Origin: Candidatus Foliamicus sp.
GTDB taxonomy: Bacteria > Pseudomonadota > Gammaproteobacteria > Steroidobacterales > Foliamicaceae
DNA: 64,000 bases
Assembly (NCBI GenBank): GCA_965261845.1
Contig: OZ253475.1
Coordinates: forward strand, 3,238,152 to 3,302,151
Reading direction: 5' to 3'
In this document: positions 6,304-51,289 of the stretch, piece after piece
Layout: each line of letters opens with the position of its first letter
Position numbering within the stretch: the stretch's first letter is position 1
Translations under genes and position numbers: made by a program
The notes under the pieces: generated by a model
The model's database searches: none
Told to the model about the DNA's origin: nothing
The model's input: only the letters and a program-made list of their open reading frames with translations

Positions 6304-6570
6304 GAAATCAAGCAGCGAGTTTGTGGCGCCTTTCAGCTTGCGGCCACGGTGACGATCCGGAACTGGGTTTGTAGCTGCGCCAAGCGAACGCACTTCTGAG
6401 CGCTTACGTCTCCCCTGGGGAACAAGATGAAACTTGTGCAAGGACTACCTTCCTTGTAGTGTTTGTTGCCCCCGCACCAGGCTGTCGCCGTTCCGGCGCT
6501 TGCCGTTCCAATTGCGACACCACCTTCGTTCATGATCAACGGAGAATCAATGGGGTCTACCCCTCAAGTT

Positions 6571-15004: not shown

Positions 15005-15010
15005 GAGCCG

Positions 15011-17425
15011 TCAGGCGCGTAAACGGACGTTGGCCGGGTCGTGCACGGGCTCATTCAGCAGCGTCGCCGGCCGCCGTTGCCCGAGCACTTCGACCGTCAA
15101 CGCCGTGCCGGAGTCGGCCAGGGACGGCGGCACGTAGCCGAAGCCGAGGCTCCGCCGGACAAAGTGGCCATAGCCGCCGGAGGTGGTCACCCCCACGCAC
15201 CGCTCACCGGCGAAGATCGGCTCCCCGCCCTGCACATCCGCATCGCCGGGGTCCAGGGTGAAGTAGATCAGTTGCAGCGTGCGGTCCCGCTGCTTGAGGG
15301 TCGCTTCCCGGCCGATGAAGTCGCCCTTGTCGAACTTGATGAAGCGCTCCATGGCCGCGTCGATCATGGTGACTTCGTTAGTCAGTTCCACACCCCAACT
15401 GCGATAGGCTTTTTCCAGTCGCAGGCTGTTGACCGCATAGAGGCCGAAATTGCGGATGCCGAATGTCGCTCCTGCCGCCACCAGCGCGTCATACAGCGCC
15501 TCCAGATGTTCAATGGCGGGGTGCAGTTCCCAGCCGAGTTCGCCCACGTAGTTCACTCGCAAGGCCCGCACCGGCATCCCGGCGATATCGATTTCCTTAG
15601 CCGTCAGCCAGCGAAAAGCGCTGCTGTCCAGGGGCGAATCCGTCACCTGGGCCAGCACTTCCCGGGCGCTCGGTCCGGCCAGCACCAGCACCCCCCGCCG
15701 GTCGGTGACATTGGCGACGCATGCCTGCTCCGCGGGGCGCCGGCCCTGTTGCAGGTAGTCCAGATCGCGCAGTTCGGCGCCGGCGGCGGAAAGCACGTAG
15801 AAGGTCTCATCGTCGAGGTGGGTGATGGTCAGTTCCGCGCCGATGCGCCCACCCTCGGAGAGCAGATGGGTGAGCGCCATACCGCCACCCGCCGGCACCC
15901 GGTTGGCGCAGAGTCGATTCAGCATGCTACGGGCATCGGGGCCCGTCACGTCGAACTTGGCGAATCCGGAGAGGTCCAGGATGCCGACCCGCTCGCGCAC
16001 GGCCAGGCACTCTTCGCGCACCAACTCGAACACGTTGTTGTGGCGAAAGCTGTATTGCTCCTCCCGGCCGTCGGGCGAGAACCACTTGGGCCGCTCCCAG
16101 CCAAAGGTATCGGTAAACACGCAGCCCTGGGCCTTGAGCTTGTCGTACAGGGGGCTCGTCCGGCATCGGCGGGCCGCCGGCAGTTCTTCCCCCGGAGGCG
16201 GCGTGGCGTAGGTCCTGGCGTAGTCCTGGCGGCCCCTGGCGCCCATGTAGCCAGCTTCGGCAAACACCCCGAAGCGGCGCGGATCGAACCCGGTCATGTT
16301 GATCTCGGAGTCGCCATGCAACATCCACTGGGCCAGGTACTTGCCGCAGCCGGCGCCCTGGGCAATGCCGAAGGACGAACCGCAGCAGAGCCAGAAATTG
16401 CGCAGCCCGGCCACCGGGCCGAGCAGTGGCAGACCGTCGGGGCTGTGGGAGATGGCGCCGTTGACGATGCGCTTGATGCCTGCTGGTTCGAAGATCGGCA
16501 TGCGCTCCATGGCGCGCTCCAGCCAGGGCATCAGCCGCTCGAGATCGTCCTCGAACAGTTCGCTGTCGGACTCCCAGGGCGGCAGTCCGCCCGGTTGCCA
16601 GGCTTCGCTTAAGCCCTCGGACTCATAGATGCCGATCAGGCCGGACTCCTGCTCCTGGCGCAGGTAGACGGAGGCATAGGGGTCGCGGGTCACGGGGAGT
16701 TCTTCACTTCTGCCGGCCAGTTCCGGCACCGGGCCTGAGACAAGATAGTGGTGCTGGATGTTGCAGATGGGAAGGTCCGCGCCTACCATCCCTGCGACTT
16801 GCCGGGCGAAGCAGCCGGCGGCATTGACCACGGTTTCGGCGATAACCGGCCCCTGTTGTGTCATCACTTTCCATTCGCCGCCCGGCAGGGCGTCAATGCC
16901 GGTCACTCGATTGTGCCGCATGATCCTCGCACCCAGGTCGCGCGCGCCCTTGGCCATTGCCTGGCAAAGCCCGAACGGGTCGGCATGACCGTCGTGGCGA
17001 GTCCAGGCGCCGGCCAGCACCCCTTCGGTTGAGACAAAGGGATTCAACTTGCCGATCTTTGCAACGTCGACGATCTCCATGTGGTAACCGACATTTGCAG
17101 CGATACCGCGCAGGTAGCGGAACCAGTCCAGATCCTGCTCGGTGAGGGCAAAGCGGACGCTGCCGCAGGCGTGCCAGGTGACCGACTGTCCGGTCAGTTG
17201 CTCCAGTTTCCGGTACAGGGAAATGCTGTACTCGTGGATCTTGGCGAGGTTGTAGTTACCGACCAGGTTGGGGCATTGACCGGCCGCGTGCCAGGTCGAG
17301 CCCGAAGTCAACTCGCCCTTCTCGATCAGCAGGACATCGCCGCACCCCTCGGCCGCCAGGTGGTAGAGCAAGCCGACGCCCATAATGCCGCCGCCGACAA
17401 TGACAATTCGAGCCTGTTTCTGCAT
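15011..17425 (-). CDS. GcvT-family FAD/folate N-methyl dehydrogenase, dimethylglycine dehydrogenase-like
   Basis: IVGGGIMG, LTSGSTWHAAG, SHSPDG, GWERPKWF, GcvT C-terminus. Start trimmed to MQKQARI (GGAG RBS). Confidence 0.9.
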   Translation of the reverse strand: MQKQARIVIVGGGIMGVGLLYHLAAEGCGDVLLIEKGELTSGSTWHAAGQCPNLVGNYNLAKIHEYSISLYRKLEQLTGQSVTWHACGSVRFALTEQDLDWFRYLRGIAANVGYHMEIVDVAKIGKLNPFVSTEGVLAGAWTRHDGHADPFGLCQAMAKGARDLGARIMRHNRVTGIDALPGGEWKVMTQQGPVIAETVVNAAGCFARQVAGMVGADLPICNIQHHYLVSGPVPELAGRSEELPVTRDPYASVYLRQEQESGLIGIYESEGLSEAWQPGGLPPWESDSELFEDDLERLMPWLERAMERMPIFEPAGIKRIVNGAISHSPDGLPLLGPVAGLRNFWLCCGSSFGIAQGAGCGKYLAQWMLHGDSEINMTGFDPRRFGVFAEAGYMGARGRQDYARTYATPPPGEELPAARRCRTSPLYDKLKAQGCVFTDTFGWERPKWFSPDGREEQYSFRHNNVFELVREECLAVRERVGILDLSGFAKFDVTGPDARSMLNRLCANRVPAGGGMALTHLLSEGGRIGAELTITHLDDETFYVLSAAGAELRDLDYLQQGRRPAEQACVANVTDRRGVLVLAGPSAREVLAQVTDSPLDSSAFRWLTAKEIDIAGMPVRALRVNYVGELGWELHPAIEHLEALYDALVAAGATFGIRNFGLYAVNSLRLEKAYRSWGVELTNEVTMIDAAMERFIKFDKGDFIGREATLKQRDRTLQLIYFTLDPGDADVQGGEPIFAGERCVGVTTSGGYGHFVRRSLGFGYVPPSLADSGTALTVEVLGQRRPATLLNEPVHDPANVRLRA

Positions 17426-17482
17426 GGCGTTCTCCGCGCTTGGATGGCCACCGCTCAAATTCTCAGGGAAGTTGGGGTCAAC

Positions 17483-17500
17483 TTGCAATATGGATTGCGA
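17483..17500. promoter_or_regulatory. Candidate operator palindrome TTGCAAT-N4-ATTGCGA upstream of the dehydrogenase pair
   Basis: AT-rich 7-4-7 dyad with one mismatch, about 60 bp upstream of the ATG at 17425. Confidence 0.35.
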
Positions 17501-17822
17501 TATCAGCCGGCGTTTCGGTAAACGGCGGGCGGCAGCAGGCGGTCACAGCGCCCATGTCAGCATCGCAATCTCGTTGGTCATCGAAAAGCGCTTTTTCCCA
17601 TTGCGGATGTCAATTCATGACTGCTAATATGCCGCTACGGGCCGCTGGATCGGCCGTGAGATGGAGCAGCCGGGCAGGAACGCGCGCCGGGCCGGTTCGG
17701 CCCGTAGCACAGCCGTTCGCCACAAGCGTCTGCCTGCCCCATAATCGCGACCCGACCGGATTCCCGCTCAGGAACTGCTGAACTTTTTAAGGCCGCAGTT
17801 TTGGTGGTTGGAGGTAGTTGGC

Positions 17823-18548
17823 ATGAACGACGACGTGGACGGCAAGGACATGGCTGCGGAGCAGCCGGACGATCTCGTCCTCTCTGAACTCGCCGACGAT
17901 GAACTGGTCGAGCAAATGCACGACGATCTGTACGACGGTCTCAGGGATGAAATCGTTGAAGCCACGGAGATTCTGCTGCAGCGGGGCTGGGCGCCGGAAA
18001 AGGTGCTGAGCGATGCCCTGGTGGGCGGAATGCAGATCGTCGGTGTCGACTTTCGCGACGGCATCCTGTTCGTGCCGGAGGTGCTGCTGGCGGCCAACGC
18101 CATGAAGGGCGGCATGGCCGTGCTACGGCCGTTGCTGGCGGAGACGGGCGCGAAGCCGGTCGGCAAGATGGTGATCGGTACGGTCAAGGGCGACATTCAC
18201 GACATCGGCAAGAACCTGGTGGGCATGATGATGGAGGGCGCCGGTTATGAGGTGATCGATATCGGCATCAACAACAGCGTTGAAAGCTACCTGGAAGCGC
18301 TGCACAAACACCGCCCGGACATTCTCGGCATGTCGGCCCTGCTGACCACCACCATGCCGTACATGAAGGTGGTCATCGACGAACTGGTGGCGCTATCCAT
18401 CCGCGAAGACTACATTGTGCTGGTCGGCGGCGCGCCCCTGAACGAGGAATTCGGCATGGCGGTGGGCGCGGACGCCTATTGCCGCGATGCCGCCACCGCG
18501 GTGGACACCGCCGCCCTCCTGATGCGCAAGAGGCACAACGACAGATGA
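17823..18548 (+). CDS. Stand-alone corrinoid (B12-binding) methyl-carrier protein
   Basis: Cap domain FVPEVLLAANAM; B12 motif GTVKGDIHDIGKNLV...GMSALLTTTM...VGGAP; GGAGG RBS. Confidence 0.95.
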   Translation: MNDDVDGKDMAAEQPDDLVLSELADDELVEQMHDDLYDGLRDEIVEATEILLQRGWAPEKVLSDALVGGMQIVGVDFRDGILFVPEVLLAANAMKGGMAVLRPLLAETGAKPVGKMVIGTVKGDIHDIGKNLVGMMMEGAGYEVIDIGINNSVESYLEALHKHRPDILGMSALLTTTMPYMKVVIDELVALSIREDYIVLVGGAPLNEEFGMAVGADAYCRDAATAVDTAALLMRKRHNDR

Positions 18549-19210
18549 CACGGGACTCTGCGGACGGGATAGGGGCCCGCCGAGGGGACGCGGGCGAGGC
18601 GCAACTGCCGATGAAACGGGATCCGGTGCTGGTGATCGCGTGCGGCGCTCTCGGCCGGGAGTTGCATGCGATTCGGCACGCCAACGGCTGGAACCACCTT
18701 CGCATCCGTTGCCTGGATCCGCAATTGCACATTCGCCCGGAGCAGATCGCGCCCCGGCTGCGCGCGGAGATCAAGCGCGCGAGCGGGCAGTACCACCGCA
18801 TCTTCATCGGTTATGCGGATTGCGGCAGCTATGGCGAGATCGACCGGGTGCTGGAGGACTATCCCGGGGTGGAGCGCCTGCCGGGCCTGCACTGCTATGA
18901 GTTGTTCGCCAGCCCCGAGGTCTTCCAACGCCTGGCCGATGAAGAGCCGGGCACCTTCTACCTCACCGATTTCCTGGTGCGCTTCTTTGACCGGCTAGTC
19001 GTGCAGACGCTGCAACTTGACCGCCATCCTGAACTGTCTGAGGCCTTCTTCGGCAACTACCGGCGCGTGGTCTATCTGTCCCAGACCCGGAACGCGGAAC
19101 TGCTCGCCGCGGCCCGGGCGGCCGCGGCCCGCCTGGGCCTTGAATTTGCCCACCTTCACACCGGCTACCGCGGTTTGCAAGACCGTGTCGCCCGGACGGC
19201 CGCAGGCTGA
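18545..19210 (+). CDS. DUF1638-like protein (accessory to corrinoid methyltransfer)
   Basis: VIACGALGRE, LHIRPEQI, YADCGSYG, HCYELF, TFYLTDFLVR. ATGA overlap with the upstream gene; alternative start 18611. Confidence 0.8.
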   Translation: MTRDSADGIGARRGDAGEAQLPMKRDPVLVIACGALGRELHAIRHANGWNHLRIRCLDPQLHIRPEQIAPRLRAEIKRASGQYHRIFIGYADCGSYGEIDRVLEDYPGVERLPGLHCYELFASPEVFQRLADEEPGTFYLTDFLVRFFDRLVVQTLQLDRHPELSEAFFGNYRRVVYLSQTRNAELLAAARAAAARLGLEFAHLHTGYRGLQDRVARTAAG

Positions 19211-19214
19211 CGCC

Positions 19215-19526
19215 ATGGACGCGATCCTGCTGAGGTGGCGTGATATCCCCTCACAGGTTATCGTCAGGCAGGGCAGAAGGCGCGCAAGGGCGCGGTTGAG
19301 CGGGCGCTTTCAGAACGCCATCGATCGCGCCGCCATGCGGGCGAAGAAGCGTAGCGCCGATGCCTACATCGATGAATGGGCGCGGGAGCCGATCAAGCCT
19401 GGGGCGGATGATGCGGCGGCGGATTTGCAGGTGGTCGCGGACCGGCTTGCGGCCCGGTTCGAAACGCGTTATTCGGACGAACGTCTGCTGGCGCTCATTC
19501 GCAATCACGGCTTGGCGGAGGATTGA
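19215..19526 (+). CDS. Small 'virulence factor' family protein of corrinoid/folate clusters
   Basis: WRDIPSQV...LSGRFQNAIDRAAM...DAYIDEW motif. Confidence 0.75.
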   Translation: MDAILLRWRDIPSQVIVRQGRRRARARLSGRFQNAIDRAAMRAKKRSADAYIDEWAREPIKPGADDAAADLQVVADRLAARFETRYSDERLLALIRNHGLAED

Positions 19527-19562
19527 AGGGATGTGCCGGATGCGTCTGTTGGTGGCCGAGGC

Positions 19563-20459
19563 ATGACGGACACGGTAATCGCTTCCCATCGCCGGGAGGT
19601 GGCGATCGGTTTCGATCGGCCCTTTGTGATCATAGGCGAGCGCATCAACCCCACCGGGCGCAAGATTCTGGCGGCGGAAATGAAGGCGGGAGACTACCAC
19701 CGCGTGGCCGCGGACGCGGTCGCCCAGGTAGAGGCCGGCGCCCACATGCTGGATGTGAACGCCGGAATTCCGCTGGCGGACGAACCCGCCATTCTGGCCG
19801 AGGCCATCAAGCTGGTGCAGTCGGTAACCGATGTACCCCTGTGCATCGATTCCTCCATCGTCGCTGCGCTGGAATCCGGCCTGGCGGCCTATCGCGGCAA
19901 GGCGCTGGTCAACTCGGTCACGGGCGAAGAGGACAGGCTGGAAACGGTGCTGCCGCTGGTAGCCCGGCACGGCGCCGCGGTGGTGGCCATTTCCAACGAC
20001 GAAACCGGCATCTCCGAGGATCCGGACGTGCGCTTTGAAGTGGCCAGGAAGATCGTCGAACGAGCTCAGGACCACGGCATTTCCCGCAGCGACGTTGTGG
20101 TCGATCCGCTGGTTATGCCGATCGGCGCGATCAACTCCGCCGGCCGGCAGGTCATGCACCTGGTCAGCCGATTGCGCAGGGAACTGAAGGTCAATACCAC
20201 CTGCGGTGCGTCCAATGTGAGTTTCGGCCTGCCCAATCGAAACGGTATCAACAGCGCATTTCTCACCATGGCGATCGGAGCCGGCATGACTTCCGCGATC
20301 ACCAACCCGCTGCACAGTGAGGTCCTGCAGGCGGTCCTTGGCGCCGATGTCATGATGGGCAAGGATCCCAATTGCGCGCGCTGGATCGGCAAGTACCGCG
20401 AACCCGGTGCGCCAGCGGGGGCCCGAGGGAACCGGCGGGGCCGCCGCCGCCGCGGCTGA
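19563..20459 (+). CDS. Pterin-binding methyltetrahydrofolate:corrinoid methyltransferase
   Basis: IIGERINPTGRK, LDVNAG, LCIDSS, LVNSVTGE, VVDPLVMP, GASNVSFGLPNR. Alternative start 19533. Confidence 0.93.
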   Translation: MTDTVIASHRREVAIGFDRPFVIIGERINPTGRKILAAEMKAGDYHRVAADAVAQVEAGAHMLDVNAGIPLADEPAILAEAIKLVQSVTDVPLCIDSSIVAALESGLAAYRGKALVNSVTGEEDRLETVLPLVARHGAAVVAISNDETGISEDPDVRFEVARKIVERAQDHGISRSDVVVDPLVMPIGAINSAGRQVMHLVSRLRRELKVNTTCGASNVSFGLPNRNGINSAFLTMAIGAGMTSAITNPLHSEVLQAVLGADVMMGKDPNCARWIGKYREPGAPAGARGNRRGRRRRG

Positions 20460-20479
20460 CCCCGGGGCTTGTACAGGTC

Positions 20480-22498
20480 TTGGCAGACAAAACCAAACGC
20501 CGGGCCCGGGTAGTTTTCACTCCGTCGGGACAGCGCGGCCAGTTTCCGCTCGGCACAACGGTGCTGCAAGCGGCCCAGGAGCTTGGCGTGGACATCGCCT
20601 CCATCTGCGGTGGCCGCGGACTCTGCGGGCGTTGCCGCGTAGTTTGCAGCGAAGGCGACTTTCCCAAGCACGGCATCGTTTCCAAGTCGGAGCACCTTTC
20701 GCCGTCCGGCGCCGTCGAGGCCCGCTATGCGGAACGCAACCTGCCGCTGGCGCCCGGCCACCGCTTGAGTTGCCAAGCCGGCATTCAGGGGGATCTGCTG
20801 ATCGACGTGCCGCCGGAAAGTCAGATTCACCGCCAGGTTGTGCGCAAGGCCGCCGACTCCCGGCCGATCCGCCTGGACCCGGTGGTCCGTCTCTACCTGG
20901 TGGAGGTGGCGCCCGCGGATATGCGGGGCTCGGGCAGCGACCTGACGCGCCTGCTCGACGCGTTGCAGGAGCAGTGGAGTCTGCGCCCGGCATTTCCGAG
21001 GGCGTTGCTGGCCCACCTGCAAGGCATATTGCGGGCCGGCAAGTGGACGGTCACGGTCGCCATCCACCAGGATTCGGAAATACTGGCCATCTGGCCAAGC
21101 TTCAAGCAATCCATCTACGGTCTGGCGATAGACGTTGGCTCAACCACTATAGCCGCCCATCTATGCGACCTGAACAGCGGCGACGTGCTTTGTTCGAACG
21201 GCATGATGAATCCCCAGATCCGCTTTGGCGAGGATCTGATGAGCCGGGTCTCCTACGTCATGATGCACCCGAAGGGCAGCGGTGAACTGACCAGGGAGGT
21301 GCGCAAAGCCGTCAATGAACTCGTGGCCACAACCGCATCGGAAGCCGGCGTGGATCCACAGGACATCCTCGGCCTCACGTTCGTGGGCAACCCGATCATG
21401 CATCATCTGCTGCTCGGCATCAGCCCGGTGGAACTGGGCGGGGCGCCGTTCGCGCTGGCGGTGGACGAGGCTGTCCAATTGGCAGCCCGCGACCTTGGTC
21501 TTGAGGTCAATCCGGGCGCCGTAGCCTATGTGCTGCCCTGTATCGCCGGACATGTGGGCGCCGATACCGCCGGCGTCTTGCTTTGCGAGCAACCCCACCG
21601 TAGCGGGGCAGTGAGTCTGCTGGTGGACATCGGTACCAATGCGGAAATCGTGCTTGGCAACGACCAGCGCTTGCTGGCCTGCTCAAGTCCCACCGGACCG
21701 GCCTTCGAGGGCGCCCAGGTCAGTGCCGGCCAGCGCGCTGCGCCCGGCGCCATAGAACGGGTACGTATCGATCCGGTCACCCTGGAGACCCGGATTCGCG
21801 TGATCGGCTCCGACATCTGGTCGGACCAGCCGGGTTTCAGCGACGCGCTGCCGGATCAGGGCGTCACCGGCATTTGCGGGTCCGGGATCATCGAAGCGGT
21901 GGCGGAGATGTGGCTGGCGGGCATCCTCACCAGCGACGGTGTGATCGACGGCGGGCAAGCGAGCCGCTCGCCTCGCCTGATTCGTGATGGCCGCACCTTC
22001 TCCTTCTCCATCCATGGAGAACGGGTCACGGTCACGCAGACCGATGTGCGCCAGATTCAACTCGCCAAGGCTGCCCTTTATGCCGGCATCAGGCTGCTGA
22101 TGGATCGGCTCGGGGTGACCTCGGTGGATCGAATACGCCTGGCCGGCGCCTTCGGCAGTCATATCGATGTGCGCTACGCCATGGCGCTGGGCATGATTCC
22201 GGACTGCCCGCTGGATGCGGTTTCCGCGGCCGGTAACGCGGCCGGGCACGGGGCCAGGATCGCCCTGCTGAACCGGGCCTCCCGGCGCGAGATCGAGTCC
22301 GTGGTCAAGCGCGTAGAGAAAGTGGAGACGGCCATCGAACCGAAATTCCAGGCTTACTTTGTCGATGCCATGGCGATACCGCATGGCACGGACGCTTTTG
22401 CGGGCCTGGCCGGCATCTTCCCCGATCGGGTCGCGCGCCCCGCTATGGCCGGACCGGAGCGGCCCGCCCGGCGCCGGGGCCGTCGCTCAAGACACTAG
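20480..22498 (+). CDS. ASKHA-domain reductive activator of corrinoid proteins (RACo/RamA-like) with N-terminal 2Fe-2S ferredoxin
   Basis: CGGRGLCGRC...RLSCQ; AIDVGSTT; NPQIRFGEDLMSR; VDIGTNAEI; GPAFEG; GICGSG; LAGAFG. TTG start at 20480 inferred. Confidence 0.92.
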   Translation: MADKTKRRARVVFTPSGQRGQFPLGTTVLQAAQELGVDIASICGGRGLCGRCRVVCSEGDFPKHGIVSKSEHLSPSGAVEARYAERNLPLAPGHRLSCQAGIQGDLLIDVPPESQIHRQVVRKAADSRPIRLDPVVRLYLVEVAPADMRGSGSDLTRLLDALQEQWSLRPAFPRALLAHLQGILRAGKWTVTVAIHQDSEILAIWPSFKQSIYGLAIDVGSTTIAAHLCDLNSGDVLCSNGMMNPQIRFGEDLMSRVSYVMMHPKGSGELTREVRKAVNELVATTASEAGVDPQDILGLTFVGNPIMHHLLLGISPVELGGAPFALAVDEAVQLAARDLGLEVNPGAVAYVLPCIAGHVGADTAGVLLCEQPHRSGAVSLLVDIGTNAEIVLGNDQRLLACSSPTGPAFEGAQVSAGQRAAPGAIERVRIDPVTLETRIRVIGSDIWSDQPGFSDALPDQGVTGICGSGIIEAVAEMWLAGILTSDGVIDGGQASRSPRLIRDGRTFSFSIHGERVTVTQTDVRQIQLAKAALYAGIRLLMDRLGVTSVDRIRLAGAFGSHIDVRYAMALGMIPDCPLDAVSAAGNAAGHGARIALLNRASRREIESVVKRVEKVETAIEPKFQAYFVDAMAIPHGTDAFAGLAGIFPDRVARPAMAGPERPARRRGRRSRH

Positions 22499-22563
22499 CT
22501 GCTTCGACATCTAAAGAGCTATGCTTTCAGCGTCTTTCAACTCGTTTTCCAGGGAGAGCAGCC

Positions 22564-24105
22564 ATGCCTCGACGAGCAGGTGGTAGAAGGGCGCGAGTGG
22601 CGGAGCGCGCAGCGCCCCTTGCCGAAGCGATCAAACCGGTTCGGCCGGGGCATACCGGAGGCCAATACCGGCCCTTGTCCGCTGCCGGCGTTGCGGCCAT
22701 CGCGGACAACGCCTTGAAGATTCTCGACCGAGTGGGATTCGCCGACGCCACCCCTCACTGCATCGAAACCTGCACGGCGGCCGGCGCCGTGCTCGGCGAG
22801 GACGGGCGCTTGCGCATGCCGGGAAGTCTGGTCGAGCGGACCCTTCAGCAAGCCCGGCGAAATCTGGTTCTGCACGGTCAGGATCCGCGCAGAGACCTGG
22901 ATTTGAGCGGCGCCAGAGTGCACTTCTCCACCGCCGGCGCGGCGGTCATGGTCGCTGACACGGAGCAAGGAGTCTATCGGGATTCCAAGGCGCAAGACCT
23001 GTACGACATGGCGCGTATCGCCGACAGCAGCGAGCACATTCACATGTTCCAGCGCACCTGCGTCCCTCGGGACATTGCCGACAACTATGCAATGGACATC
23101 AATACCCTCTACTGCTCGGTGATGGGCACCAGCAAGCACGTCGGTTCAAGTTGGACGCTACCCCAGCACGTGGAGAAGAGCCTTGAGATGCTGCATCTCA
23201 TCGCCGGCGGCGAGGCCGAGTGGCGGGCGCGTCCCTTCGTCAGTCAGTCCAACTGCTTTGTGGTCCCGCCGATGAAGTTCGCCACCGATGCGCTTGAGTG
23301 CCTGCGGGTAGCAGTGCAGGGCGGCATGCCGGTACTGCTGTTATCGGCGGGCCAGGCCGGCGCGACGACCCCCGCCTATCTGGCCGGGGCGGTTTCTCAA
23401 GCCTGGGCGGAGTGCCTCGGCGGGCTGGTCTATGTCAACGCGATCAAGCCCGGCGCACCGGCGATTCTCGGCTGCTGGCCGTTCGTTTCGGATCTGCGCA
23501 CCGGGGCGATGAGCGGCGGCTCCCCGGAGCAGGGCCTGCTGTCCGCCGCCTGCGCCCAGCTCGGCAACCATTTCAACCTTCCCTTCGGCACCGCCTGCGG
23601 CATGAGCGACGCCAAGTTTCCGGACTTTCAGGCCGGCGCGGAACGTGCTGCAACGGTGCTGTCCGCTGCCTTGTCCGGGGCGAACATCGTTTATGAATCG
23701 GCCGGCATGTACGCCAGCCTGTTGGGCACATGCCCGGAGAGCCTGTTGCTGGACAACGACATCCTTGGCGCCGTCGGGCGCGTTACGCGGGGGATCGAAG
23801 TCAACTCCGATACGCTGAGCTTCGCCGAGATCGAACAGATCTGCGCCAGCGGCGAAGGGCATTACCTGGGTTCGGGCAGCACCCTGCAGGTGATGCAAAG
23901 CGAGTACATTTATCCGGACTTCAGCGACCGCACCAGCCCGAACGTCTGGGAGGAACAAGGCAGGCCGGTGCTGCTGCATCGGGCCGTCGAAAAAACCCGG
24001 GAAATTCTCGCTCATCGGGCGCCGCGTCACGTCAGCGACGAAATCGACGCCCGCGTGCGGTCCGAGTTCCCGATCTTTCTCTCCCGGGCAGCCATGGGGC
24101 GATGA
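22564..24105 (+). CDS. Trimethylamine methyltransferase (MttB) superfamily, non-pyrrolysine, glycine betaine methyltransferase (MtgB)-like
   Basis: YRPLS, DLRTGAMSGGSPE, CGMSDAKFPDFQAGAE, GANIVYESAG, LLDND; uninterrupted 513-aa ORF. Confidence 0.92.
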   Translation: MPRRAGGRRARVAERAAPLAEAIKPVRPGHTGGQYRPLSAAGVAAIADNALKILDRVGFADATPHCIETCTAAGAVLGEDGRLRMPGSLVERTLQQARRNLVLHGQDPRRDLDLSGARVHFSTAGAAVMVADTEQGVYRDSKAQDLYDMARIADSSEHIHMFQRTCVPRDIADNYAMDINTLYCSVMGTSKHVGSSWTLPQHVEKSLEMLHLIAGGEAEWRARPFVSQSNCFVVPPMKFATDALECLRVAVQGGMPVLLLSAGQAGATTPAYLAGAVSQAWAECLGGLVYVNAIKPGAPAILGCWPFVSDLRTGAMSGGSPEQGLLSAACAQLGNHFNLPFGTACGMSDAKFPDFQAGAERAATVLSAALSGANIVYESAGMYASLLGTCPESLLLDNDILGAVGRVTRGIEVNSDTLSFAEIEQICASGEGHYLGSGSTLQVMQSEYIYPDFSDRTSPNVWEEQGRPVLLHRAVEKTREILAHRAPRHVSDEIDARVRSEFPIFLSRAAMGR

Positions 24106-29476: not shown

Positions 29477-30814
29477 CTATACGCCGTCATCGGCCAAGCC
29501 ACGGATACGCGGTTCCAGATCAGCCGGCGCTACGTACGCATAACTTCTGCCGTCGGACCGCTTGCGCTCCAGGAGACCACACTTCGCCAGCTCCAGAAGG
29601 TCGCTGCGGGCGGTGCCGTTTGCGACGTTATGGCTGGTGCGGTGGGAGCGTACGGTGTAGCGCGTTGAGGGATGTTTGAGGGCGTGGGCCAGCAGGGCCA
29701 GCTGTCTGTGGTTGAAGCTTGTCGAGTGCGTGAGCATGTTCTCGACCGCCTCACACTGCTCTGTTTTCTCGGCGATGTATTGTTCCACCCCATTGATGGC
29801 GCGCAGCAGCAGCACAGCCTGATGCGCGAGGAAGTAGGTCAGGTCGGCGCCGTCGGTCTCGGTATGCAGAAAAGAGCGGGCGTAACGGGTGGGCGCGTAT
29901 GCCATGTGCCAGCTTATGGAGATGAACTCAAACAGGCGGTAGTTGGAGCGAAGTGCGGACCAGTAGAACAGGGCGCGGGCGGTTCGCCCATTGCCGTCGG
30001 CGAAAGGGTGGTCGTACGCCAGCCAGAAATGCAGCGCGATGGCGCGAACAATGGGATGTATGAAAGCCTGGTCTTCATCTTCCTGGTTGGCGAAGCGGAT
30101 CATCCGCTGCACACGTACCGGCAGCTCCTTCGCCGCGGGTGGCCGATGCAGAACTTTTCCGCCGGTGACATCGGACACATGAACCCGCTCGTCTCCGGGC
30201 TGCTGGAGGCGGCCCGCATTCGCCGGATCGTCCAGCGTTTCCCTGGTAACCATGGCGTGCAGTTCCAGCAGACCGTCCCGCGAGAGCGGCTGGTCCGCCA
30301 TGTGACGAACGGATTGCATCGCCCGATAGTTGTTGGCGATCATCCGCTCGCTGTGATCCCTGGGCCGGCGCCCGGAACGGAGCATTTCCACGCCATCCGC
30401 CTGAGTGGTGGAAGCCCCCTCAAGGCGGCTGGATGCGATCGCTTCATGGATGAGCGAGTTGATAATGAATCGATCCTGTTCATCGGGCAGCTTGGCCGCT
30501 TTCAACCCGCTCATCCGGCTGTCAATGCGATGCAGCGCCTCCAGCGCGAGGTCGGGAAGCATGAATACGAACGGGCGCCCGTTCAAGTCGGCAAGGGGCA
30601 GGGTGCGGTATTGGCTGCTGCGGGCCAGCTTTATCGCCAGCCACCATTGTTCGTTGCTGAGGCCTCCGGGCGCCGGGCGATGGCGCAACTCGTCCCAATG
30701 CAAATAGCGGCCCCTGATGGTTGGGGACTTCCAGGACTGCAGGATGCTTGCCAGGTTGTCCGAATGCCGCGGCAGCAGGGTGGCGACAGGTTCCGGCGCA
30801 AGTGGCGGCTTCAT
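29477..30814 (-). CDS. Fic-domain protein with internal inhibitory motif and C-terminal HTH-like region
   Basis: HPFADGNGRTAR catalytic motif; SSRLEG matches (S/T)xxxE(G/N). Confidence 0.92.
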   Translation of the reverse strand: MKPPLAPEPVATLLPRHSDNLASILQSWKSPTIRGRYLHWDELRHRPAPGGLSNEQWWLAIKLARSSQYRTLPLADLNGRPFVFMLPDLALEALHRIDSRMSGLKAAKLPDEQDRFIINSLIHEAIASSRLEGASTTQADGVEMLRSGRRPRDHSERMIANNYRAMQSVRHMADQPLSRDGLLELHAMVTRETLDDPANAGRLQQPGDERVHVSDVTGGKVLHRPPAAKELPVRVQRMIRFANQEDEDQAFIHPIVRAIALHFWLAYDHPFADGNGRTARALFYWSALRSNYRLFEFISISWHMAYAPTRYARSFLHTETDGADLTYFLAHQAVLLLRAINGVEQYIAEKTEQCEAVENMLTHSTSFNHRQLALLAHALKHPSTRYTVRSHRTSHNVANGTARSDLLELAKCGLLERKRSDGRSYAYVAPADLEPRIRGLADDGV

Positions 30815-30903
30815 GGCTACCTTCAATACTTGCCAGTTATGCGAAAACTGACAAGTATTGTGCGTTAGCTGTCAAAATATGTCAATATCAACAATAATAA
30901 CAT

Positions 30904-39557: not shown

Positions 39558-41282
39558 TTACTCCCGCACGTCGGCGCCGCCGTTGCGCCGGGGATCGCTG
39601 GCCGCCGTCACGGTTCCATCCGCGTAGTCGAAGGTAATCGCCTGCATGTTGCCCCACGGCCGCGGCGACTCGCGAAGGCTGTGGCCCATCTCGGCGAGAG
39701 CTTCCTGCAAATCGGCATCCAGCGCGCCTGACTCGAAGGAAATCGAGTCGGGTATGTACTGATGATGGATGCGTGGCGCGCCCACGATTCCGGAAGCGTC
39801 GGCGCCGTCAATCCAGCGCAGGGCGCCCAGTAATACCATGGTTACGATGCGGCTGCCGCCGGGTGTGCCCAGGATCGCGAGCCCGCGCTCCGATTCCAGG
39901 AACGTGGGCGTCATGCTGGACAGCATGCGCTTGCCGGGTTCGATGCCGTTGGCATGCGAATGTACCAATCCAAACACGTTGGGCGACCCGGACCTGACCG
40001 AGAAGTCGTCCATCTCATTGTTGAGTATCACTCCTGAGCCGGCGGCCACGAAGCCGGACCCGAACAGGGTATTGATGGTTTGCGTTACCGCAGCGCGATT
40101 GCCGTCCTTGTCCATGACCGAGAAGTGACTTGTGTCGGTTCCAAGAGGCCTCTGGCTGACCGGCCCCGGCAGCATATCGCTGGCCGTGGCGCGGTCCATG
40201 CGAACGCTGGCCAGCAATCCGTCCGCGTACCAGGGGTGAATCAAGCGTTCTATCGGAACAGATACGAAGTCCGAATCGCCCAGATACTCGGCTCGATCGC
40301 GATAGGCGCGCCGAATCGCTTCCACCAGCAGGTGGGTGCGGGCAGGCTCATCGAGTTGGGCGAATCCCCGGTGTCCGAGCATGTTGAAAACCTGCGCCAG
40401 GCCCACGCCGCCGGCCGAGGGAGGTGGTGCGGTGGTCACGTGAACCTTGCCGTACTGAAAGCGAATCGGTTGCCGTTCGACTACGCGATAGGCTGACAGA
40501 TCATCCACGCTCCAGATGCCTCCTGCGCGCCGTACTTCCTCCACCATGCGTTCGGCTTCGCGGCCTGAATAGAAGCTGTCGGGACCCTCTTCCGCCAGGC
40601 GTTCCAGGGTGGCTGCCAAGTCCGGCTGCCGGATCAGCTCTCCCAGCTCAGGCGGCTCCCCTGACGGCATGAATACGGCCAGAAACGCCTTCGAGGGCGA
40701 GCCTCGCGATGCGAATCCCCGCAACCGCCGAATTGTGCCTTCGTCCACTTCAACGCCTTCCTTCGCAAGCCGTATAGCCGGCTGGAGGCTTTGGGCAAGC
40801 GGCAGGCGCCCGAATTTCTCTGCTACGTGAGCGAGCCCGGCGGGCAGCCCGGGGATACCTGCCGCAAGTGCTCCGGACAGTGAAGCTTGCCGAATGGGTT
40901 CGCCGTCCTCATCCAGGTACATATCCCGGGTGGCTTCGCCGGGAGCCGTTTCGCGGGCGTCCACGAATACTTCGTATCCGTCGCTGGCCCGGTGCAGCAG
41001 AAAGAAGCCTCCGCCGCCCATGCCGGAGCTGTGCGGCTCCGCTACCGAAAGGGCGGCGCTGACCGCGACCGTTGCGTCGAAGGCGTTACCCCCCTGGGCA
41101 AGTATTTCAAAGCCCGCCTCGGTGGCCGCGGGATGCGCGCTGGCAATGGCAGCCCGACCGGGGACGGGCGAAGCGGGGGATTGGGCGCCTTGCGATCCCG
41201 CGATAGCGATCGAAGCGCTTGCTATCCACAAGAAAACCGCCGGCCCGATTTTTCGGCCGGCGTGTCCAAGAACAAGACTCAT
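39558..41282 (-). CDS. ggt: Gamma-glutamyltransferase
   Basis: GGNAFDA, SGMGGGGF, DARETAP, TSHFSV (nucleophile Thr), LNNEMDDF, LSSMTPT, GTPGGSRI. Confidence 0.96.
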   Translation of the reverse strand: MSLVLGHAGRKIGPAVFLWIASASIAIAGSQGAQSPASPVPGRAAIASAHPAATEAGFEILAQGGNAFDATVAVSAALSVAEPHSSGMGGGGFFLLHRASDGYEVFVDARETAPGEATRDMYLDEDGEPIRQASLSGALAAGIPGLPAGLAHVAEKFGRLPLAQSLQPAIRLAKEGVEVDEGTIRRLRGFASRGSPSKAFLAVFMPSGEPPELGELIRQPDLAATLERLAEEGPDSFYSGREAERMVEEVRRAGGIWSVDDLSAYRVVERQPIRFQYGKVHVTTAPPPSAGGVGLAQVFNMLGHRGFAQLDEPARTHLLVEAIRRAYRDRAEYLGDSDFVSVPIERLIHPWYADGLLASVRMDRATASDMLPGPVSQRPLGTDTSHFSVMDKDGNRAAVTQTINTLFGSGFVAAGSGVILNNEMDDFSVRSGSPNVFGLVHSHANGIEPGKRMLSSMTPTFLESERGLAILGTPGGSRIVTMVLLGALRWIDGADASGIVGAPRIHHQYIPDSISFESGALDADLQEALAEMGHSLRESPRPWGNMQAITFDYADGTVTAASDPRRNGGADVRE

Positions 41283-46852: not shown

Positions 46853-47906
46853 CGTGATTGTCGACAAGCTGTCCTCGGTGGCGACCGGTCTGGATCTCGG
46901 TCGCGAGATTCGGGTGGGAGACAACATTCCCAGCGAGGAAGGAGTGATCGTGGCGGCGCAAGTACTTAACGAGAAGTCGTCCTATAACCGGCTGGAATTG
47001 GCCAGCGGGCGAATGGCCCGGGTACGCAAGGGCGACGTGGTTGTGGGCGCCCTGGGGCACCGCAAGGCCTTGTTCGGGTACTCGGGGCATCTGCCGGAAT
47101 CGGTCAAGCCCGGCGACCTGCTGCAACTGCTGAATATCGGCGGCGTGCTGGGTGTGTGCGATTCAATAAACGCCAACATGGGACGGCCCTTCGATACTCG
47201 TGTCCTGGGCGTTGTGCTGGAATTTCCCTTCCTGGGAGAACGTGTGGGCGTGCCGGCACGGGTAGGTGACGAATCGCTGAACATCGGGGAAAGCGGCGAG
47301 CTGAATCTTGGCGGCGTTCCGGTTGTAGCCCTGGCCGGTACCTGCATGAACTCCGGCAAGACCGCGGCGGCCTGCGCGATCATCGGACGGTTACGGCACG
47401 AGGGCTACGTGGTGGACGCCTTCAAGGCCACCGGTGTGTCTCTGCGCCGGGATATCCTGGCGATGGAGGACGCAGGCGCCCGCAATACCGCCATCTTTAC
47501 CGACTTCGGCGTGGTCAGTACCGCGCCGGAGAATGCGCCGGCCCTGGTTCGCGCCATGCTCCGCCGAATGGCCTCGGCCGGCCCCGATGTGATCCTGTTC
47601 GAATTGGGGGACGGTATTCTCGGTGCGTACGGAGTAGAAGCAATCCTGGCTGATGCAGGAATACGCTCCTCTCTTACCTGCCTGCTGCTGTGCGCCAGCG
47701 ACCCGGTGGCGGCCTGGGGCGGGGTGCGCCTGCTCAAGGAACAGTATGGGATCGAGGTCGCCGCGGTAACCGGGCCGGCCACCGACAACCAGGTCGGTCT
47801 GGACATACTGGCCCAGCGCATCGGCGTACCGGGCTACAACGCCATCACCCATGGCGCGGAACTCGGCGAGTTCGTTGCCGGCAATGTTTCCCTGAGCCGG
47901 TCATGA
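46845..47906 (+). CDS. DUF1611/DgcN-related P-loop protein embedded in the arg operon; candidate N-acylglutamate synthase
   Basis: GDVVVGALGHR N-domain; AGTCMNSGKT; KATG; DAGA..FTDFG..ST; ELGDG. 8-nt overlap with argG and ATGA overlap with argC; 353 aa. Confidence 0.8.
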   Translation: MRSVIVDKLSSVATGLDLGREIRVGDNIPSEEGVIVAAQVLNEKSSYNRLELASGRMARVRKGDVVVGALGHRKALFGYSGHLPESVKPGDLLQLLNIGGVLGVCDSINANMGRPFDTRVLGVVLEFPFLGERVGVPARVGDESLNIGESGELNLGGVPVVALAGTCMNSGKTAAACAIIGRLRHEGYVVDAFKATGVSLRRDILAMEDAGARNTAIFTDFGVVSTAPENAPALVRAMLRRMASAGPDVILFELGDGILGAYGVEAILADAGIRSSLTCLLLCASDPVAAWGGVRLLKEQYGIEVAAVTGPATDNQVGLDILAQRIGVPGYNAITHGAELGEFVAGNVSLSRS

Positions 47907-48952
47907 GCATTCCGGCAGTAGTTCTGGGGGCATCAGGCTATGTAGCCGGAGAACTGCTGCGTATCCTTGCCGGCCACCCGGAATTCCAGGTGGCCGCGGC
48001 AATTTCCCGGAGTAACGCCGGCGCGGCGGTCGAATCGGTTTTTCCCAACCTGACCGGCGTCCGGCCGAAGCTATGCTTTCGTCCACTGGCCGAATTGGGA
48101 GACGCACTCAAGGAACCGTGCGCAATATTCTCCTGCGCCCCCCACGGGGCGAGCGCCGGTCTTGTGGCCCTGGCGCTCAAGCTGGCCGACTCGAATGGCA
48201 GCGCTGTTCGGATCGTGGACGCCTCGGCGGATTTTCGATTTGCCAGCGCAGCCGCATACGAACAGGTGTACGGCGCAAGCCACGGCGCTCCCGAATTGCT
48301 GCCGCTGTTTTCCTGCGCGCTACCCGAACATCGGGCTGCGGCGGATACACCGCATATCGGCCACCCGGGCTGTTTCGCCAGCGCAATGCTGTTGGCGTCG
48401 GTGCCGCTGATGCGCTCGGGGCTGATAGACGGGCCCTTGTTCACCAGCGGCGTGACCGGCAGCACCGGCGCCGGTAAGCAGCCGCTTCAAACCACCCATC
48501 ATCCGGTTCGCCATTCCAATATGTTTGCTTACCGGCCCTTGCGCCATCGCCACGCACCGGAGGTCGAGGCAGTTTGCGAGGCGGTGAGCGGCGCGCGTCC
48601 GCAACTCCGGTTCGTACCCCATTCCGGGCCGTTCGCGCGCGGCATCCACCTGACCATGCAAGCCGCGCTCAAGCCGGAGGCGGACGAACGCAAGGTGCGT
48701 GCGGCCTTTGCCGATGCCTACCTGGAATCGCCGTTCGTGCACGTGATAGACAGCCCGCCCAGGTTGAAGGACGTTGTCGGCGGAAATCATGCTCATCTTG
48801 CGATTACCGTCCGCGATGGTTCGGTGGCGGTCTTCGTGGTGCTGGACAACCTGGTCAAGGGTGCGGCAGGCGGGGCGGTGCAATGGATGAACCGCCTGTA
48901 CGGCCTTGAAGAAACCGCCGGCCTTGCCGCGGCAGGTCCGGCATGGACATGA
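47903..48952 (+). CDS. argC: N-acetyl-gamma-glutamyl-phosphate reductase
   Basis: GASGYVAGELLRIL, HPGCF, GSTGAG, HRHAPE, PFARGI, DNLVKGAAGGA. Confidence 0.96.
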   Translation: MSIPAVVLGASGYVAGELLRILAGHPEFQVAAAISRSNAGAAVESVFPNLTGVRPKLCFRPLAELGDALKEPCAIFSCAPHGASAGLVALALKLADSNGSAVRIVDASADFRFASAAAYEQVYGASHGAPELLPLFSCALPEHRAAADTPHIGHPGCFASAMLLASVPLMRSGLIDGPLFTSGVTGSTGAGKQPLQTTHHPVRHSNMFAYRPLRHRHAPEVEAVCEAVSGARPQLRFVPHSGPFARGIHLTMQAALKPEADERKVRAAFADAYLESPFVHVIDSPPRLKDVVGGNHAHLAITVRDGSVAVFVVLDNLVKGAAGGAVQWMNRLYGLEETAGLAAAGPAWT

Positions 48953-50280: not shown

Positions 50281-51289
50281 CATCCAACGATTCGACGATC
50301 TGGCGGATTTTTCGCCGGAACAGATAGCAGCGCTGCTGGCCCTGGCCAGCCGCCTGGAAAAACGCCCCGAGCCGGAGGCCCTCAAGGGCAAGGTCCTTTC
50401 GCTATTGTTTCTCAACCCGTCGCTCCGGACCCTGGCTTCCTTCCAGGCGTCGATGACTCGCCTGGGCGGCGGCGCCTTCGTGATTTCTCCGGAGATGTCC
50501 ATCCACGGCCTGGAGACCCGCCCCGGAATCGTCATGGACGGCGCGGCGGCCGAGCATGTCAAGGAGGCGGTCCCGGTAATCGCCTCATACGGAGACGCCC
50601 TGGGCCTGCGTGCCTTCGCTGAACGGCGCAACCTTGTGGAGGACCTGGAAGACCGCGAGTATCGCAGTCTTGCGGAACTGGTATCCACGCCCTTGATCAA
50701 CATGGAATCGGCGATCAATCATCCCTGTCAGAGCCTGGCGGACTGGAAGACCATGGATGACTTGAATACGCCGGCGTCCGGCGGGAAGTTCGTATTGAGC
50801 TGGGCCTATCATCCCCTGGCCCTGCCGCTGGCGGTGCCGGCCGCTACGCTGCAGATGGCGGCGATGCGGGGAATGGACGTCACCGTGGTGCGGCCGAACG
50901 GCTTCGAATTGCCTGCGCTGGTCATGGACAAGGCCCGCAAGCTGGCGCAGCGGTCCGGCGGCTCGGTAAGGGAGACGGACGATCGAGCCGAGGGATTCGA
51001 CGGAGCGCATGTGCTGTATGCCAAGTCCTGGAGTTCGACTCTCCATTATGGCGACAAGCATGCGGACTATCAGTTGCGCAATGGGCATGAGGACTGGTGC
51101 ATCGACGAGGATTGGTTCGCGCCGGCTGAATCGGACTGCAAGTTCATGCATTGCCTGCCGGTGCGCCGCAACGTGGTGGTAAGCGAAGCGGTACTGGACG
51201 GCCCGCGCAGCGTCGTCGTGGCCGAGGCCCGCAATCGAATGTGGGTGCAGATGGCCGTTCTCTACGCCATGCTGGGGCCGGGACTGTGA
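50273..51289 (+). CDS. argF: N-acyl(acetyl/succinyl)ornithine carbamoyltransferase (ArgF'-type)
   Basis: FLNPSLRT (not STRT), MDG...EH, HPCQ, SWAYHP, HCLPVRRNV, EARNR. Confidence 0.92.
   Translation: MSDIQRFDDLADFSPEQIAALLALASRLEKRPEPEALKGKVLSLLFLNPSLRTLASFQASMTRLGGGAFVISPEMSIHGLETRPGIVMDGAAAEHVKEAVPVIASYGDALGLRAFAERRNLVEDLEDREYRSLAELVSTPLINMESAINHPCQSLADWKTMDDLNTPASGGKFVLSWAYHPLALPLAVPAATLQMAAMRGMDVTVVRPNGFELPALVMDKARKLAQRSGGSVRETDDRAEGFDGAHVLYAKSWSSTLHYGDKHADYQLRNGHEDWCIDEDWFAPAESDCKFMHCLPVRRNVVVSEAVLDGPRSVVVAEARNRMWVQMAVLYAMLGPGL

Follow-up and report, generated by a model that had tools for sequence, protein, structure and literature searches.

The arginine operon of Candidatus Foliamicus sp. 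raises the question of whether its early intermediates carry an acetyl or a succinyl group. The operon lies in a 64,000-nucleotide stretch of contig OZ253475.1 (assembly GCA_965261845.1, positions 3,238,152 to 3,302,151 of the forward strand), hereafter the window, whose numbering is used throughout. It comprises nine translationally coupled genes in the order argR-argG-X-argC-argD-argF'-argB-argH-thioesterase, nearly all of which overlap their neighbours start to stop. Two products are central to the question, the carbamoyltransferase ArgF' and the conserved hypothetical protein X. The original prediction, made from the letters of the window, was that an alanine at a specificity position of ArgF' suggests N-succinyl intermediates, that these would be unusual for a proteobacterium, and that X would then be a succinyltransferase. 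A three-residue signature in ArgF' and an independent prediction in a preprint support the pathway part of this proposal at the level of sequence, and the operon probably runs through N-succinylated, not N-acetylated, intermediates.

The segment in question, ATGGACGGCGCGGCGGCCGAGCAT (50534-50557, plus strand), translates as MDGAAAEH and forms residues 88-95 of ArgF', with Ala93 (codon 50549-50551) two residues before His95, just as had been read from the sequence. In a phmmer search of the PDB, residues 4-144 of ArgF' align without gaps over the N-acetylornithine carbamoyltransferase (AOTCase) of Xanthomonas campestris (Xc; E 1e-64; PDB chain numbering equals native numbering plus 20), placing "mdgAAAeh" over "mdgdtEeh". 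A three-way MAFFT alignment with the N-succinylornithine carbamoyltransferase (SOTCase) of Bacteroides fragilis (Bf), the sequence of which was verified against PDB 1JS1, equates Xc Glu92, ArgF' Ala93 and Bf Pro90. The correspondence given in the original prediction is thus borne out by both alignments, and its motifs, DGDTEEH for Xc and DGDKPEH for Bf, match the PDB sequences. The position is occupied by alanine and not by the glutamate that had been named beforehand as the contrary outcome. An ambiguity of register arising from the three consecutive alanines was considered and rejected, because MDG and EH on either side do not vary and no gap interrupts the alignment. The following segment of ArgF', EAVPVIASYGD, is closer to EAIPVMGCYCD of the Bf enzyme than to EVARVLGRYVD of the Xc enzyme, a likeness that had also been pointed out. 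The top single PDB match of ArgF' is 3L02, an Xc AOTCase chain with alanine at the switch (the E92A mutant).

The significance of this position comes from work on the Xanthomonas enzyme. In that enzyme the succinyl group is kept out by Glu92, and putting a small residue at this position switches it to N-succinylornithine. According to the preprint "GapMind 2026" (Price and colleagues, bioRxiv; 10.1101/2024.10.14.618325), which cites Shi 2007, the replacements E92A/P/S/V turn Xanthomonas AOTCase into a SOTCase; the rule invoked in the original prediction agrees with this account. A 2015 review by the discoverers of both enzymes (Shi et al.; PMC4581275) extends the distinction to three positions, which in Xc numbering are Glu92/Asn185/Lys302 in AOTCase and A/S/P/V/Q, P and V/I/E in SOTCase. 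ArgF' has Ala93, Pro185 and Val302, that is, a SOTCase residue at each of the three positions and none of the AOTCase residues.

This signature is not peculiar to one sequence. Two sets were compared, a close set of 121 homologues (73-99% identity) and an operon set of 56 ArgF' proteins (the query and 55 from related operons). Ala93 is invariant in both (121/121 and 56/56), and Pro185 is found in all 121 close homologues and in 55 of the 56 operon-set proteins, the remaining one being a truncated open reading frame (ORF). Val302 is likewise present throughout the close set (121/121) and is replaced by Ala or Glu in some related loci. Over the operon set the combined pattern is A/P/V in 37, A/P/A in 15 and A/P/E in one, with three truncated ORFs. 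Position 91, next to the switch, varies widely (A/V/M/T/I/E/Q/P). Because the three residues are conserved while position 91 varies, the Ala93/Pro185/Val302 signature is, judging by this pattern, under selection and not a product of chance.

In other respects ArgF' is a regular member of its group. It carries the motifs of knotted transcarbamylases as defined in PMC4581275 (S50-L-R52-T53, H150-P-C-Q153 and H-C294-L295-P), both Pfam domains OTCace_N and OTCace are found, and in the three-way alignment its 120s region is free of deletions when compared with the Xc and Bf enzymes. The residues that bind carbamoyl phosphate and the ornithine moiety are retained (SxRT, HPxQ, HxLP, E145, K251 and R298). 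Bf SOTCase (PDB 1JS1, 2FG6, 2FG7, 2G7M) resembles ArgF' in being knotted, in the proline-rich loop HPxxLPxAVP, in a small switch residue (Pro90 against Ala93), in Pro181/Pro185, in an aliphatic residue at 282/302, in the conserved pairs His176/His180, Arg278/Arg298, Glu142/Glu145 and Lys236/Lys251, in the common segment EA(I/V)PV and in the placement of its gene within an arginine cluster. It differs in having Pro rather than Ala at the switch, in Arg178 and Trp75 where ArgF' has Leu182 and His78, and in its host, which belongs to Bacteroidota and not to Gammaproteobacteria. Xc AOTCase is the best-scoring solved relative of ArgF', gapless through the switch and with the same catalytic motifs, whereas its wild-type Glu92/Asn185/Lys302 stand against Ala/Pro/Val. 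The pairwise identities are 37.5% for ArgF' and Xc, 32.3% for ArgF' and Bf, and 35.5% for Xc and Bf. Taken together, the residues make it likely that ArgF' prefers N-succinylornithine.

If so, an enzyme forming N-succinylglutamate would be expected, and gene X is the natural candidate. The operon proteins contain neither GNAT/ArgA nor ArgJ domains (NCBIfam and Pfam searches of the operon), and ArgB consists of the kinase domain only, without a fused GNAT domain. X itself matches no Pfam or NCBIfam family; its gene begins 8 nt before the end of argG, and its stop codon runs into the ATG of argC. In a 90%-clustered collection X has more than 7000 homologues at E <= 1e-3, all of them unnamed or "hypothetical", and in a 50%-identity-clustered library 1412 representatives. 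In a scan of species-representative genomes, X homologues at 63% identity or more were recovered from 80 loci, Steroidobacter denitrificans not being among them; their gene content was established by tblastn and clustering, longest-ORF calls being unreliable in these GC-rich loci owing to antisense ORFs. X lies directly upstream of argC in all 80. The operon order is identical in about 55 of the 80, and the others are reduced to argR-X-argC-argD-argB or X-argC-argB. Two fusions, P0352 and P0301, join X to other enzymes of the pathway: one to an ArgB-type kinase (626 aa, four contigs, JGI name "acetylglutamate kinase"), the other to ArgC (687 aa, one contig).

The same prediction for this type of cluster had already been made in the preprint (10.1101/2024.10.14.618325), so that the succinyl reading is supported here but is not new. 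According to that work, S. denitrificans grows in minimal medium without any ArgA, and its arginine cluster includes the hypothetical protein ACG33_RS14135, homologues of which are almost always found in arginine operons, never together with ArgA homologues, and in some cases next to argE candidates. Of 70 neighbouring ArgF' proteins, 90% have A/P/S/V at position 92, and the authors predict, as a prediction only, succinylated intermediates and an alternative N-succinylglutamate synthase in Steroidobacter and its relatives (10.1101/2024.10.14.618325). Like X, ACG33_RS14135 is a hypothetical protein inside an argR/G/C/D/F'/B/H cluster of a gammaproteobacterium; the preprint supplements list neither the cluster protein nor Woeseia. 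The remark in the original prediction that such a pathway is unusual for a proteobacterium holds against textbook knowledge and not against this preprint, where the pathway is already proposed for this gammaproteobacterial group. What the present analysis adds is the three-residue check across the clade, the deviating residues His78 and Leu182, the weighing of BioD against DgcN as relatives of X, the fusions of X to ArgB and ArgC, and the likely systematic misannotation introduced by family model NF003384. The features of the operon are collected in Table 1.

Table 1. Genes of the arginine operon and the residues and motifs discussed, in window coordinates.
Feature	Position	Strand	Basis
argR, arginine repressor, 152 aa	45142..45600	+	NCBIfam repressor families E 3e-29, under curated cut-offs; Pfam Arg_repressor and Arg_repressor_C on identical public gene call
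argG, argininosuccinate synthase, 408 aa	45626..46852	+	TIGR00032, 280.6 bits (cut-off 268.2)
X, conserved hypothetical, putative N-acyl (succinyl) glutamate synthase, 353 aa	46845..47906	+	context and predicted fold
Walker A / P-loop GTCMNSGKT of X, residues 165-173	47337..47363	+	family alignment; aligned to BioD P-loop GTDTEVGKT
argC	47903..48952	+	TIGR01850, 283 bits (cut-off 233.6)
argD, N-acylornithine aminotransferase, 445 aa	48943..50280	+	TIGR00707 acetylornithine/succinylornithine transaminase family, E 4e-100; Pfam Aminotran_3
argF', knotted N-acylornithine carbamoyltransferase with SOTCase-type signature, 338 aa	50273..51289	+	PDB matches; NF003384; three-way alignment
His78 codon, at the 80s-loop Trp position (Xc W77 / Bf W75)	50504..50506	+	alignment
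Motif MDGAAAEH; Ala93 at the acetyl/succinyl switch position (Xc Glu92 / Bf Pro90)	50534..50557	+	phmmer and MAFFT alignments
Leu182 codon, at Bf Arg178 (succinyl anchor) / Xc Lys182	50816..50818	+	alignment
Pro185 codon, second discriminator (Xc Asn185 / Bf Pro181), in proline-rich loop HPLALPLAVP	50825..50827	+	alignment
Val302 codon, third discriminator (Xc Lys302 / Bf Ile282)	51176..51178	+	alignment
argB, N-acylglutamate kinase, 311 aa	51286..52221	+	TIGR00761, 201 bits (cut-off 151)
argH, argininosuccinate lyase, 397 aa	52221..53414	+	TIGR00838, 304.6 bits (cut-off 279.5)
Hotdog-fold thioesterase (4HBT, PaaI/MenI/EntH-like), 151 aa	53411..53866	+	TIGR00369, 124 bits (cut-off 36.6); Pfam 4HBT

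What kind of protein X might be was approached through its predicted structure. An AlphaFold (AF2) model built on a diverse 51-sequence alignment (predicted local distance difference test, pLDDT, 95.7; predicted template modelling score, pTM, 0.92) has an N-terminal domain made almost wholly of beta-strands (about residues 1-126), which a linker joins to a P-loop alpha/beta domain (about residues 159-353) that carries GTCMNSGKT. An earlier AF2 model from 31 close homologues was less confident (pLDDT 77) and its N-domain poor; Foldseek matched it to generic signal recognition particle (SRP), HypB and BioD proteins. In a Foldseek search of the PDB the C-terminal domain of X alone was matched, with BioD (E 2.6e-6) ranking ahead of SRP GTPases and HypB, and with the DUF1611 protein 2OBN at rank 24 (E 6.4e-5, template modelling score by query 0.40). 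The preprint notes for ACG33_RS14135, from a different model, a weak structural likeness to the D-glutamate acetyltransferase 7XRJ (E 1.4e-7; 10.1101/2024.10.14.618325); 7XRJ was not in the top 50 of either Foldseek search with the X models.

Sequence comparisons point in a similar direction. The X-family profile has BioD as its best match in the PDB (E 2e-4) and finds no DUF1611 chain there up to E = 10, Pfam DUF1611 (PF07755) gave no match in the window X at E <= 0.1, and two distant family members have sub-threshold DUF1611_C matches (18.4 and 20 bits, cut-off 25) in the P-loop region only. An hhalign comparison with E. coli BioD (E 6e-5) pairs K172/T173 of X with K15/T16, K194 with K37 and E253 with E115, so that the catalytic layout of BioD is kept in X. 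In the 51 sequences, with identity down to 27%, G171 and K172 never vary and T173 hardly does, and across the family K172, T173, K194 and E253-L-G-D-G are all invariant or nearly so; X thus bears the motifs of a BioD-like ligase.

The likeness to BioD (PDB 1DAE, 1DTS, 3FGN) comprises the GT-x4-GKT P-loop, the lysine after strand 2 (K37, X K194) and the E-x-G-x-G strand (E115, X E253), but it is limited to the C-terminal ~195 residues of X at 16-24% identity, and X is set apart by an additional beta-domain of ~125 residues and by its genomic context. DUF1611/DgcN proteins (2OBN; 7XRJ) share with X the BioD-like P-loop C-terminal domain and, as proposed for X, action on the amino group of glutamate. 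They have a Rossmann-like N-domain, whereas that of X is predicted to be almost wholly beta-strand, and X would use L-Glu as substrate and, by prediction, a succinyl donor. The link of X to DgcN is no stronger than its link to BioD. In BioD, ATP phosphorylates an N-carboxyl oxygen, which the amine then attacks, so that an amide-type bond is formed. Because the resemblance to BioD at least equals that to DUF1611, the acyl donor of X is left between succinyl-CoA, to which the analogy with DgcN points, and ATP plus free succinate, for which the better-supported likeness to BioD leaves room. It seems unlikely, though worth stating, that X is a BioD-like ATP-dependent ligase and not a CoA-dependent acyltransferase; in that case the amino group of L-glutamate would be coupled to free succinate or to some other small carboxylate. 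The grounds for describing X as a succinyltransferase are gene context and a weak fold resemblance, which is no better than that to ATP-dependent BioD. With these points combined, chances are somewhat better than even that X makes N-succinylglutamate.

Several observations weigh against a succinyl pathway and have to be set beside this evidence. The NCBIfam model for N-acetylornithine carbamoyltransferase, NF003384, matches ArgF' with 332 bits (cut-off 288). Transferring the switch rule to ArgF' is an extrapolation, because identity to the Xc and Bf enzymes is low and two residues of the substrate site differ. One of these is His78, at the position of the 80s-loop tryptophan that takes part in second-substrate binding in both AOTCase and SOTCase (PMC4581275); histidine is present in 121/121 close homologues and in 50/56 of the operon set, the other 6/56 having tryptophan, so that ArgF' is unlike both solved enzymes here. 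The other is Leu182. Of the succinyl anchors of Bf SOTCase, His176, Arg178 and Arg278 (PMC4581275), the first and last are kept in ArgF' as His180 and Arg298, and Arg178 is replaced by Leu182. Position 182 is variable across the clade (K41/L29/M25/R19), and it is non-discriminating, because AOTCase too has Lys and many relatives have R/K. His78 and Leu182 may leave room for an altered acyl pocket. Beyond ArgF', no sequence relation could be detected between X and any characterised acyltransferase, and the best structural and profile matches of X are P-loop proteins that use ATP or GTP. Its orthology to ACG33_RS14135 is inferred from the Steroidobacteraceae loci with the same cluster. Finally, besides the absence of ArgE from the operon, no deacylase of the M20 type (ArgE/DapE) was found among 30 further ORFs of the window or the annotated conserved neighbours of related operons, which include PolA, TANGO2, alpha/beta hydrolase, NUDIX, ABC-2, TamAB and LysE.

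The simplest alternative is that ArgF' is an ordinary N-acetylornithine carbamoyltransferase in an operon working with N-acetylated intermediates, N-acetylglutamate coming from X or from an enzyme encoded elsewhere. Besides the NF003384 score, this is favoured by the names of the closest ArgF' proteins in public records, from Woeseiaceae and gammaproteobacterial metagenome-assembled genomes (MAGs), all "N-acetylornithine carbamoyltransferase", by the PDB matches, in which Xc AOTCase variants (E 1e-64) precede Bf SOTCase (E 4e-46) with HMMER scores of ~220 against ~160 bits, and by the description of DgcN, the closest characterised relative with the DUF1611 fold, as an acetyltransferase (10.1101/2024.10.14.618325). 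Yet Glu92, Asn185 and Lys302 are all absent from ArgF', and in the preprint's account of the Xanthomonas enzyme the change of Glu92 to Ala alone is reported to abolish acetyl preference (10.1101/2024.10.14.618325). NF003384 passes ArgF' though the AOTCase residues are absent, and therefore this model does not separate the two activities; the database names are transitive annotation from it, and the name that it confers on ArgF' is probably a misannotation that is systematic in the clade. An acetyl pathway of this kind appears highly improbable. A third acyl group, for example another short dicarboxyl group, attached by X through ATP-dependent BioD-like chemistry and accommodated by an adapted ArgF', would fit the BioD catalytic layout of X (GKT, Lys194 and Glu253, with the hhalign and Foldseek values given above) and the acyl-side residues His78 and Leu182, which are unlike those of both characterised enzymes, position 182 being variable in the clade. 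It is nevertheless quite improbable: the three-residue signature is exactly the published SOTCase pattern, most relatives have a Bf-like Arg or Lys at 182, and there is no positive sign of any other acyl group.

A different doubt concerns X rather than ArgF'. ArgF' might be succinyl-specific while X is an accessory nucleoside triphosphate (NTP)-dependent protein, a regulator or another missing-step enzyme, the acyltransferase being encoded elsewhere. In favour of this, the fold matches of X include generic SIMIBI NTPases (SRP GTPases, HypB, MipZ), X has no Pfam or NCBIfam assignment, and the deacylase step is likewise without an assigned gene. Against this, X always stands beside argC and argB, even in minimal X-argC-argB clusters, and is fused to ArgB and ArgC; according to the preprint it and ArgA homologues are mutually exclusive, and argE candidates lie next to some X homologues (10.1101/2024.10.14.618325); and a P-loop fold is unlikely for an amidohydrolase. 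We regard an accessory role of X as doubtful, if deserving of serious consideration.

With the succinyl pathway preferred, the following sequence of reactions may be proposed. X would make N-succinyl-L-glutamate, which would be converted to N-succinylornithine by ArgB, ArgC and ArgD; the identities of these three genes are clear, and their acyl specificity is presumed. ArgF', given Ala93, Pro185 and Val302, would then carbamoylate N-succinylornithine to N-succinylcitrulline, from which citrulline would be released by a desuccinylase encoded outside the window, and ArgG and ArgH would complete the pathway. In the succinyl pathway of Bacteroidetes, B. fragilis ArgB is an N-succinylglutamate kinase, the first enzyme is of the GNAT type (BT3761 in Bacteroides) and the desuccinylase of the M20 type, as set out in the earlier GapMind paper (PMC7311316); in the window operon the place of the first enzyme is presumably taken by X. 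In 28 related loci (e.g., L016, 7567-8241, minus strand), though not in the window, a gene for an alpha/beta-hydrolase (Abhydrolase_2, phospholipase/carboxylesterase type) lies immediately upstream of argR in divergent orientation; its product is a weak candidate for a missing hydrolytic step.

Some details of the operon and its relatives deserve mention. The GTG start of argB, taken from public gene calls and the junction sequence, overlaps the argF' stop (GTGA). The thioesterase gene likewise has a GTG start overlapping the argH stop (GTGA) and is therefore part of the arginine operon; in the 7 closest loci and in 5 that are Steroidobacteraceae-like, argH is followed by the same gene, which the other related operons lack. 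The C-terminal ~45 aa of ArgD extend past the aminotransferase domain as a low-complexity, proline- and serine-rich tail ending within the start of argF'; public gene calls retain it (437 aa, with a slightly later start). The locus records are mostly unclassified gammaproteobacterial MAGs, several of them sponge-associated bins, and 8 are titled Steroidobacteraceae; the X homologues of the latter are 64-66% identical and sit in the same cluster. Loci titled Gemmatimonadetes or Longimicrobiales (L008-L015, e.g., L012, OZ244873.1) have an X 74% identical to that of the window in the reduced arrangement argR-X-argC-argD-argB, with no argG, argF' or argH nearby; either these bins are mislabelled or the module has been transferred laterally.

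The remainder of the window contains other features of note. A gamma-glutamyltranspeptidase gene (39558-41282, minus strand) lies ~4 kb upstream of the arginine operon, and this neighbourhood is kept in the closest genomes. An ORF of more than 2148 codons on the minus strand (1-6444), running off the left end, contains two near-perfect tandem DNA repeat arrays, at 1184-3319 (period 357, 6 copies, 96% matches) and 3881-5458 (period 342, 4.6 copies, 98%), and its product resembles a giant repetitive protein of the surface or adhesin type; the repeats also give rise, as antisense artefacts, to identical 109-aa plus-strand ORFs at 3929-5284. A methyl-group metabolism cluster (12548-24105) comprises two DAO+GCV_T (dimethylglycine/sarcosine dehydrogenase-like) genes, a corrinoid (B12-binding) protein, DUF1638, a RACo-type reductive activator and an MttB-family methyltransferase (22564-24105) with an uninterrupted frame, inside which an Rfam PYLIS_3 match (23602-23701) is barely over threshold (40 against 38 bits). 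A Fic-domain (adenylyltransferase-like) protein is encoded at 29477-30826 on the minus strand.

If the succinyl reading is correct, a large and environmentally abundant gammaproteobacterial group, including Steroidobacterales- and Woeseiaceae-like lineages and sponge-associated MAGs, would make arginine via N-succinylated intermediates, a pathway that to our knowledge has so far been demonstrated biochemically only in Bacteroides. Established ways of committing glutamate to arginine synthesis are acetyl transfer by GNAT or ArgJ enzymes and carrier ligation by the LysW/ArgX system; were X an ATP-dependent ligase, it would represent a third, unrelated way. The operon points to two enzymes, X as the candidate first enzyme, from a family of thousands of "hypothetical proteins", and a desuccinylase, and identifying both would remove a gap from the pathway predictions made for many uncultured bacteria.

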